Part shown: positions 20,667 through 21,743 of the stretch, in pieces
Position numbering within the stretch: position 1 is the stretch's first letter
Layout of the letters: every line of letters starts with the position of its first letter
DNA from: Escherichia coli
GTDB taxonomy: Bacteria; Pseudomonadota; Gammaproteobacteria; Enterobacterales; Enterobacteriaceae
Reading direction: 5' to 3' (one strand)
DNA length: 64,000 nucleotides
Assembly: GCF_050320075.1 (NCBI RefSeq)
Contig: NZ_CP190018.1
Notes under the pieces: generated by a model
Database searches by the model: none
The model's input: the letters and a program-made list of their open reading frames with translations, nothing else
Told to the model about the DNA's origin: nothing
Made by a program: the position numbers and the translations under genes

Positions 20667-21743
20667 GTGAGTATGGCTAACGCCTGGCTCAGATTATGGC
20701 ATGACATGCCAAATGACCCTAAGTGGCGAACAATTGCCAGGGTGTCAGGGCAGCCAATTGCAACAGTGATGGCAGTGTATATCCACCTCCTGGTGAGCGC
20801 GTCACGAAATGTCACGCGAGGTCACATTGATGTCACGACAGAAGATTTGGCAAGTGCGCTCGACGTGACAGAAGAGGTAATTGATTCAATTTTGCAGACG
20901 ATGCAGGGGCGGGTACTTGATGGTGATTTAATCACTGGATGGGAAAAACGCCAGGTGCTTAAAGAGGACAACGGCAATATTTCGCAAACCGCAAAATCTC
21001 CTGCAGAGCGCAAGAGGGCGCAGCGAGAGAGGGAAAGAAAGCGGGAACAAAATGGCGATTGTCACGGCGCGTCACGAAATGTCACGCACATGTCACGACG
21101 AGTCACGACAGATAAAGATACAGATAAAGATACAGATCAAGAAGATCAAAACACTATGGTCCATGGCGTAAAAAACGCCACGAACCAGGCAGGGGATGTT
21201 CAGACCGTCAATCTTGGTCAGCCAGCAGGCACGACACCGGAAGCCGATTCAGCGTATGCGCTGAAAGCCGATTCGGGCGCTGTGCAGCAGGTGATGACCG
21301 CAAGGCCGGAGCAATCACACCAACTGCAGCAGCCCGAAGCCGATTCCGCCATTCAGCGGGAAGCCGATCGGGTAGTCCCGGAAAACACCGGGCAGTCTGT
21401 GGGACGAGTGGATTATCCGGATGTGTTCGAACAGGTCTGGCGGGAGTACCCGTTGCGTGCCGGAGCAAACCCGAAGAAATCCGCTTTCAGTGCCTGGAAG
21501 GCCAGATTACGCGAGGGGGTGCCACCAGAGGCCATGCTGGATGGCGTGAGGCGTTACGCAAGATACTTGGCGGCTACCGGGAAAACGGGAACGGAATTTG
21601 TTCAGCGAGCGACGACGTTTTTTGGACCGGACCGGAATTTTGAGAACCCCTGGTTGCTCCCGGTAAGCGGCACGAACAACCAGCGTTGTGTGAATCATAT
21701 TTCTGAACCGGATAACGAAATTCCGCCGGGCTTCAGGGGGTAA
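20667..21743 (+). CDS. Phage replication initiation protein (YdaU/DUF1376-like N-terminus)
   Basis: 358 aa; N-terminal WLRLWHDMPNDPKW motif; iteron clusters inside the gene. Confidence 0.5.
   Translation: MSMANAWLRLWHDMPNDPKWRTIARVSGQPIATVMAVYIHLLVSASRNVTRGHIDVTTEDLASALDVTEEVIDSILQTMQGRVLDGDLITGWEKRQVLKEDNGNISQTAKSPAERKRAQRERERKREQNGDCHGASRNVTHMSRRVTTDKDTDKDTDQEDQNTMVHGVKNATNQAGDVQTVNLGQPAGTTPEADSAYALKADSGAVQQVMTARPEQSHQLQQPEADSAIQREADRVVPENTGQSVGRVDYPDVFEQVWREYPLRAGANPKKSAFSAWKARLREGVPPEAMLDGVRRYARYLAATGKTGTEFVQRATTFFGPDRNFENPWLLPVSGTNNQRCVNHISEPDNEIPPGFRG
20801..20840 (+). repeat. Iteron cluster 1 (4 x GTCACG at ~10-bp phasing)
   Basis: Direct repeats at 20801, 20811, 20821, 20832. Confidence 0.6.
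21061..21140 (+). repeat. Iteron cluster 2 (5 x GTCACG at 10-11 bp phasing) followed by (GATAAAGATACA)x2; candidate ori
   Basis: Direct repeats at 21061, 21071, 21081, 21092, 21103, then AT-rich tandem repeat. Confidence 0.6.

Follow-up and report, generated by a model that had tools for sequence, protein, structure and literature searches.

Two phased hexamer arrays within a putative prophage replication initiator gene of Escherichia coli, one with the layout of a replication origin

The initiator gene and its two repeat arrays

We examined a stretch of 64,000 nucleotides of the Escherichia coli chromosome (RefSeq assembly GCF_050320075.1, contig NZ_CP190018.1), referred to here as the window, and within it the putative replication initiator gene of a lambdoid prophage, an open reading frame of 356 amino acids (aa) that houses two arrays of the hexamer GTCACG (Table 1). 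RefSeq labels the gene product a hypothetical protein and annotates no origin. The NCBI name for the protein is 'phage replisome organizer', with 5786 member sequences in its 90%-identity cluster, and a PHROG search retrieved a full-length match to phrog_3729 'replication initiation protein' (E 5e-258) together with weak matches to the 'replisome organizer' families phrog_4880 and phrog_5968 (E 4e-6 and 2e-4). The module is present in thousands of complete genomes and is very common in E. coli prophages.

Exact plus-strand copies of GTCACG begin at 20801, 20811 and 20832 (cluster 1) and at 21061, 21071, 21081, 21092 and 21102 (cluster 2). A preliminary description of this DNA, made from its letters alone, had counted four copies at 20801-20837 and five in the second cluster, at 10-11-bp spacing and with about 230 bp between the clusters. 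The five copies of cluster 2 are indeed exact (21061-21107), and every measured step is 10 or 11 bp (10, 10 and 11 in cluster 1; 10, 10, 11 and 10 in cluster 2). The positions and regularity of cluster 1 are borne out as well, except that its unit at 20821 reads GTCACA, leaving three exact copies and one variant. The gap between the clusters is 223 bp, or 260 bp from start to start. Tandem Repeats Finder reported a 10-bp period repeated 5.0 times at 21060-21110 and a 12-bp unit, ACAGATAAAGAT, repeated 2.9 times at 21108-21142; the latter array contains the two tandem copies of GATAAAGATACA that the preliminary description had placed after cluster 2. The whole window holds 44 copies of GTCACG against 28.3 +/- 4.9 in shuffled sequences, 9 of the 44 lying within this 310-bp stretch, and five plus-strand copies within 47 bp have a Poisson P of ~1e-12. 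This density and the excess over the shuffles exclude a chance origin of the repeats. The single inverted copy past cluster 1 recurs in Pseudomonas and Aeromonas homologues at gene nucleotide (nt) ~192, and a Ralstonia phage has an inverted GCAAC at nt 195-196; the synonymous G at gene nt 195, in the inverted copy, shows a conservation of 0.89.

Table 1. Coordinates of the initiator gene and of the sequence elements within it, as positions in the window.
Feature	Coordinates	Strand	Remarks
Replication initiator gene ('phage replisome organizer')	20673..21743	+	N-terminal winged-helix domain aa ~1-128, linker aa 129-245, helical C-terminal domain aa 246-356
Cluster 1	20799..20843	+	four direct 10-11-bp units, core GTCAC(G); codons 43-57, end of helix 29-45 and variable loop of the N-terminal domain
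Single inverted motif copy (CGTGAC on + strand)	20864..20869	-	27 bp past cluster 1
Cluster 2	21059..21110	+	five direct units, core GTCACG; codons 130-146, start of disordered linker; proposed core iteron array
AT-rich tract, proposed DNA-unwinding element	21108..21156		purine-rich on coding strand; includes the ACAGATAAAGAT array; codons 146-161
Palindrome TGGTCCATGGCGT-aaaaa-ACGCCACGAACCA	21157..21187		31 bp, 13-nt arms, 5-nt loop; right flank of AT-rich tract; codons 162-172

Hexamer classes across the family

Homologous loci were collected from GenBank phages, IMG/VR and one genome per species of GTDB. A scan of viral contigs with a mixed alignment had returned only 80 loci, 99-100% identical to the window over the matched 146 aa, and was replaced by single-protein scans from distant members and by the one-genome-per-species scan. 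After dereplication, 54 loci were retained from hosts among the gamma-, beta- and alpha-proteobacteria, with genera including Escherichia, Serratia, Erwinia, Morganella, Pseudomonas, Aeromonas, Chromobacterium, Bordetella, Ralstonia, Burkholderia, Variovorax and Sphingobium.

The two-cluster layout recurs in this set at constant gene positions (nt ~130-180 and ~350-450), and five core hexamer classes were found, divided by clade: GTCACG, GCAACG, GTGACG, CGAACGC and GTAACGC. A lineage-specific core is present in cluster 2 at 51 of the 54 loci. Five loci have cluster 2 only, and three are without any of the four cores counted here (GTCAC, GCAAC, GTGAC and GAACG), among them L098, which carries the fifth core, GTAACGC, in both clusters. 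Wherever both clusters are present with one of these four cores, the class is the same in the two: 46 loci are concordant and none discordant, made up of 22 of 22 for GTCAC, 11 of 11 for GCAAC, 5 of 5 for GTGAC and 8 of 8 for GAACG. The 299 core-to-core spacings of the family are mostly 10 bp (183) or 11 bp (59), with 26 more at 20-21 bp, which places the sites on one face of the duplex. The distance between the clusters was also considered as evidence of helical phasing and was discarded, as the differences of ~10-bp steps between lineages are trivially explained by gain or loss of edge units.

The motif class tracks the clades of the N-terminal domain in a tree made without the loop columns. 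It is independent of the C-terminal domain and of the flanking genes, both of which vary where GTCACG is shared by phages of E. coli, Pseudomonas and Aeromonas, and it is independent of host genus, with Pseudomonas prophages carrying either GTCACG or GTGACG. This pattern points to the gene's own N-terminal domain as the reader of the motif. The link between motif and initiator is a presumed one, and DnaD-type N-terminal domains can serve in oligomerisation, which leaves some room for another factor that binds the arrays, either a host protein or the phage's own cII/YdaT-like or DUF977 product. Nevertheless, a class that differs within one host genus and is common to hosts of different orders does not suit a host protein, and among carriers of GTCACG the N-terminal domain is the only constant partner; we give such a factor a slim chance.

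Few residues outside the iteron-encoded loop separate the motif classes. Residues 13-14 (window 20709-20714), in the conserved DMPNDPKW motif, read PN, PT, VT or LT by class, and residue 70 (window 20880-20882), in the first turn of helix 67-77, is Cys in the GTGACG class and Val or Ile in the others. Residues 13, 14 and 70 are therefore candidate specificity determinants, confounded with phylogeny. Carriers of GTCACG and of CGAACGC are ~67% identical in the N-terminal domain.

Several observations on individual loci should be recorded. L131, from Pantoea sp. BAV 3049, has no GTCAC cores at either position (gene nt 325-390 and 455-470 were noted); at the cluster 2 position it has repeats of the CTACGTAG / GTAGTACTACG type and a different downstream part of the protein, as if the origin/linker module had been swapped. 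Two loci on metagenome-assembled contigs labelled 'Collinsella sp.' (Actinomycetota; L109 and L143) are 100% identical in sequence to the E. coli prophage initiator and are almost certainly mis-binned E. coli DNA. Three single genomes hold two prophages of the same hexamer class, namely Serratia sp. H1w (L112/L123), Chromobacterium haemolyticum (L116/L127) and Burkholderia sp. 8Y (L141/L144), so that cross-talk between origins, or incompatibility, is possible there.

The number of units varies in whole, frame-keeping steps. Alleles within E. coli have 21 additional nt (two units, seven codons) in cluster 1 and 11 additional codons in cluster 2, and one allele is without a TDKD unit of the A-rich repeat. 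A rare E. coli allele, P0019 (302 aa), has lost the AT-rich tract entirely and all but one of the five cluster 2 units through a 54-aa in-frame deletion, and keeps cluster 1; it may mark a replication-dead prophage. In two Pseudomonas loci (L146 and L147) cluster 1 has grown to 8-10 GTGACG units at gene nt 146-239, with a protein loop ~25 residues longer, and an Erwinia locus (L128) has 6 + 6 units. Large iteron-driven insertions are thus tolerated by the cluster 1 loop. Further along the linker-coding region, a 36-nt segment occurs twice, at 21237-21272 and 21333-21368 (75% identical, 96 bp apart). Four copies of (G/A)AAGCCGAT within it share a reading frame and encode EADS, KADS, EADS and EADR, peptides of the disordered linker, and 324-aa E. 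coli alleles lack exactly 32 aa (96 nt) at this region; the segment could be a peptide motif or a DNA element.

Selection on the DNA of the repeats

The nine cores of the two clusters begin in all three codon phases. When synonymous codons were resampled with the protein held fixed (window codon usage, 20,000 trials), 0.76 +/- 0.83 copies of GTCACG arose, with a maximum of 6, against 8 observed (P<5e-5). For a single core, the chance that synonymous codons for its amino acids happen to spell it is only 0.04-0.16. Across 19 dereplicated homologues with GTCACG cores, each at most 73% identical to the window in nucleotide sequence, third codon positions within the cluster 1 cores (n=8) are 0.97 conserved, compared with 0.56 for 86 others in the first 300 nt (Mann-Whitney P 1.2e-5). 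In lineages with another hexamer the loop peptide is the corresponding three-frame translation of that hexamer, and in a Pantoea homologue that has the same loop length and lacks the motif, the loop peptide is unrelated. It is the DNA itself that is under selection.

The preliminary description had itself raised the possibility that the repeats reflect a repeated peptide motif (ASRNVT...VTT) under protein-level selection, with no role for the DNA. Such an account can point to ASRNVT being encoded in both clusters, and to cluster 1 and the last four units of cluster 2 being 72% identical in the same frame, 270 bp (90 codons) apart. The occupation of three frames, the resampling, the conserved synonymous sites and a peptide that changes with the hexamer of its lineage or vanishes with the motif all speak against it, as does the fact that cluster 2 codes for a disordered linker. 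We reject this explanation, which retains next to no probability.

A role in RNA, as mRNA structure or as a protein site on the transcript, would agree with every direct copy lying on the coding strand, and a neutral duplication relic homogenised by gene conversion would agree with the clusters being partial duplicates of each other. In contrast, an Rfam search gave no RNA family, the 10-11-bp phasing is that of the helical repeat of duplex DNA, and inverted copies together with the palindromic junctions of several lineages (GTCACGTGAC, GCAACGTTGC and GTGACGTCAC) speak for recognition of duplex DNA. A neutral relic, moreover, would not keep synonymous sites across phages of alpha-, beta- and gamma-proteobacteria. 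We consider both forms of this explanation very improbable.

Origin hallmarks at cluster 2

The two clusters are not equivalent. Regular repeats (4 + 5 copies) are present in both; an AT-rich neighbour and a location in linker-coding sequence are found at cluster 2 only, while cluster 1 lies inside a folded domain. The GC content of the tract that follows cluster 2 in the window reaches its minimum of 27.5% at 21110-21149, with an AT skew of +0.59. A low-GC tract of 45-50 bp follows cluster 2, and the lowest 40-bp GC content, as a mean of 45 loci, is 0.32 after cluster 2 versus 0.46 after cluster 1. Purines make up 74% of the coding strand after cluster 2 and 54% after cluster 1 at the same loci (Wilcoxon 1.7e-8). 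Neither in the window nor in this 45-locus GC comparison does cluster 1 have an AT-rich partner.

Most of 51 loci also have a hairpin-capable inverted repeat of non-conserved sequence past cluster 2, mostly at +25 to +90 bp, with 6.7 pairs versus 5.6 in control regions (P 7e-6). A scan for promoters and terminators gave counts at chance level, and the palindrome that follows the tract in the window was its sole useful item. Two GATC (Dam) sites lie in the AT-rich tract, at 21135-21138 and 21144-21147, and GATC occurs there in an Aeromonas homologue too; these sites could put the origin under methylation or SeqA control.

The initiator protein and its genomic context

Modelled alone with AlphaFold2, the N-terminal domain is predicted with confidence, at a predicted local distance difference test score (pLDDT) of 85.6. 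The model is a winged helix made up of four helices (residues 16-25, 29-45, 56-63 and 67-77), a loop at 46-55 that includes a short strand and comes after the second helix, and a beta hairpin. Its best structural match is the DnaD N-terminal domain, and a RepA_N plasmid initiator is also among the matches; the predicted fold is thus of the DnaD-like winged-helix kind seen in phage replisome organizers. The loop encoded by cluster 1 varies in length across the family, and the pLDDT of the full-length model dips to a mean of 73 at residues 41-50. Residues 129-245 are disordered in the model (pLDDT <50), so that the beginning of this disordered linker is what cluster 2 and the A-rich tract code for.

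Only the last ~25 aa (window 21675-21743, …ISEPDNEIPPGFRG) are similar to the C-terminal tail of DnaT, the primosomal protein I of the host, with an NCBIfam match at E 7e-4 and a match to PDB 6aep at E 3.5e-4. A wider DnaT profile match (E 3.5e-7) is driven by relatives that carry the full DnaT-like domain PF17948, as many relatives do. Upstream of the gene lie a cI-like repressor gene on the minus strand (19426-19845), a cro-like gene and a cII/YdaT-like gene, and downstream lies a DUF977 / Ren-like gene. No helicase or helicase-loader gene was found in the prophage after the initiator gene (21784-25000 looked at). The DnaT-like tail, the presence of PF17948 in relatives and the lack of a helicase or loader of its own suggest that the initiator would recruit the host replication-restart primosome. 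The prophage also carries dicB and hokD, and is inserted beside a tRNA-Ser gene and mtfA.

Comparison with known origins

An origin inside the initiator gene is the textbook arrangement, and the preliminary description had likened the repeats to the iterons of lambda, with two clusters in place of one. As judged from sequence, that reading is supported, with the full lambda analogy holding for cluster 2 only and the two clusters differing in kind. The layout at cluster 2 is lambda-like. The array lies in the linker-coding part of the initiator gene (codons 130-146 here, codons 117-145 of lambda O, 39034-39118), and repeats, an A-rich low-GC tract and a palindrome of ~30 bp (28 bp in lambda) follow in the same order, here within codons 130-172. 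The gene's place in the early right operon, behind cro- and cII-like genes and ahead of a Ren-like gene, is likewise shared. In contrast, lambda has four dyad-symmetric iterons of 18 bp placed ~20-24 bp apart, compared with 6-7-bp direct cores every 10-11 bp here, and it has one cluster and a separate loader, P, where this prophage has two clusters and no loader gene. Membership in the lambda O family was considered and rejected (hhalign probability 0.1%, E 0.41, for the N-terminal domain profile); the initiator is not a lambda O homologue, and the GenBank label 'DNA replication protein O' on related phages reflects position, not homology.

The Rep protein of plasmid pSK41, of the RepA_N family, binds through its N-terminal domain to boxes located centrally in its own gene, where the origin encodes the linker (PMC5703833). 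The resemblance extends to a DnaD-like winged-helix domain of ~120 aa, to the central 'Rep boxes' and to the origin-encoded linker, and the C-terminal domain of pSK41 Rep is host-specific (PMC5703833). In its architecture, the arrangement proposed here is closer to RepA_N plasmids than to the lambda origin. The differences are that pSK41 is a plasmid of Firmicutes and the present initiator belongs to a phage of Proteobacteria, without a Pfam RepA_N match, and that no second array has been described in the part of pSK41 rep that codes for the N-terminal domain.

In the phages SPP1, Tuc2009 and TP901-1, the gene for the replisome organizer contains the repeats that the protein binds (PMC6316719; PMC8965321). 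Like the present gene, those of Firmicutes phages (SPP1 G38P with oriL, Tuc2009 Rep2009, TP901-1 ORF13 and r1t ORF11) have direct repeats beside an AT-rich unwinding element, and SPP1 further shares a second binding region, oriR (PMC6316719; PMC8965321). In SPP1, however, the second site is ~13 kb distant and constitutes another origin that has an AT-rich region to itself, whereas cluster 1 lies 260 bp upstream in the same gene and is without an AT-rich partner.

Two separated arrays of one initiator repeat, an origin core and an array that controls or enhances it through protein-mediated pairing, are known from P1 (incC/incA), P4 (ori/crr) and R6K gamma. The second array of these systems lies outside the sequence coding for the DNA-binding domain, the units are 19-22 bp long or are octamers in 120-bp repeats, and the initiators are unrelated to the present one. 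For this proteobacterial family, our search of open-access literature yielded no description of an origin or of hexamer classes, nor did it yield one of an iteron array placed in the part of a gene that codes for the DNA-binding domain. What is new here is most likely the second array in that part of the gene, which is apparently undescribed in open-access text.

Discussion

We propose that both clusters are iterons for the N-terminal domain of the initiator encoded by the same gene, that cluster 2 with the A-rich tract and the palindrome (21059-21187) is the replication origin of the prophage, and that cluster 1 is a second array; we put the probability of this reading at roughly 0.7. After induction, the early rightward transcript (cro-like gene, cII/YdaT-like gene, initiator gene) would supply the initiator, monomers or oligomers of which would load head-to-tail on the 10-11-bp-phased sites along one helix face. 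The loaded initiator would then distort the DNA and open the A-rich tract, and its C-terminal domain with the DnaT-like tail would bring in the helicase-loading machinery of the host, because the prophage itself encodes neither a loader nor a helicase. Cluster 1, 260 bp upstream and overprinted on a loop in which the N-terminal domain tolerates change, would offer a second array of the same specificity, and would most likely pair with cluster 2 through bound initiator, looping out the ~220 bp between them and tuning initiation, gene expression or both.

Several points weigh against this proposal. A Pfam search of the initiator found no family at E<=0.01, including no RepA_N or N-terminal replisome-organizer model, and the label 'initiator' is thus a provisional one drawn from PHROG and NCBI naming, the position of the gene and the fold. 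An hhalign comparison with SPP1 G38P gave no detectable similarity, with a profile so shallow that non-homology is not proven. The sequences show the repeats, the selection on their DNA, the co-variation of the clusters with each other and with the N-terminal domain clades, and the lambda-like layout; that the initiator binds the sites, opens the DNA and recruits the helicase, and what cluster 1 does, are inferred. The concordance of the clusters at 46 loci amounts to about four independent class switches, not 46, since the classes are few (5) and phylogenetically clustered, and gene conversion between the clusters could have aided their co-variation. Five lineages, moreover, have cluster 2 and no cluster 1, which is therefore not essential to the design.

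More than one account can be given of what cluster 1 does. Most likely it assists or regulates the origin as its partner, whether through pairing or looping, through titration or as a roadblock to transcription of its own gene. A purely negative role, in which cluster 1 serves as an autorepression roadblock or handcuffs or titrates the initiator and cluster 2 alone is the origin, would suit an array that has no AT-rich partner, is dispensable in five lineages and sits on the transcribed path of the gene, and the growth of cluster 1 to 8-10 copies in some Pseudomonas prophages is what is expected of a titrating array; incA of P1 is an analogue. The same facts fit an enhancer-like array, with P4 crr and the R6K gamma iterons as analogues, and they do not distinguish positive from negative action. 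We hold a purely negative role to be possible but doubtful. That the iteron-encoded loop itself contacts the iteron is unlikely.

A broader form of our proposal is tentative and less likely than not. Here cluster 1 would be a functional array within the sequence coding for the DNA-binding domain, with the loop peptide as its by-product, and by pairing with the origin array at a distance of 260 bp it would set the frequency of initiation or autoregulate the gene. Domain and both arrays, as one unit, would have split into five or more specificities that exclude one another and act as replication incompatibility or immunity classes among proteobacterial prophages.

For a module that is so common in E. 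coli prophages, the analysis offers a concrete, if predicted, origin map consisting of core iterons, an auxiliary array upstream of them, an unwinding tract and a palindrome. The gene is also a clear example of how a cis-acting site can dictate which amino acids make up a loop of a folded domain. Across the family, the initiators form a natural series of at least five matched protein and site specificities, some of them between proteins that differ little, which may be of use for learning how a DnaD-like winged helix reads DNA, for predicting replication cross-talk or incompatibility between co-resident prophages, and for building orthogonal replicons.

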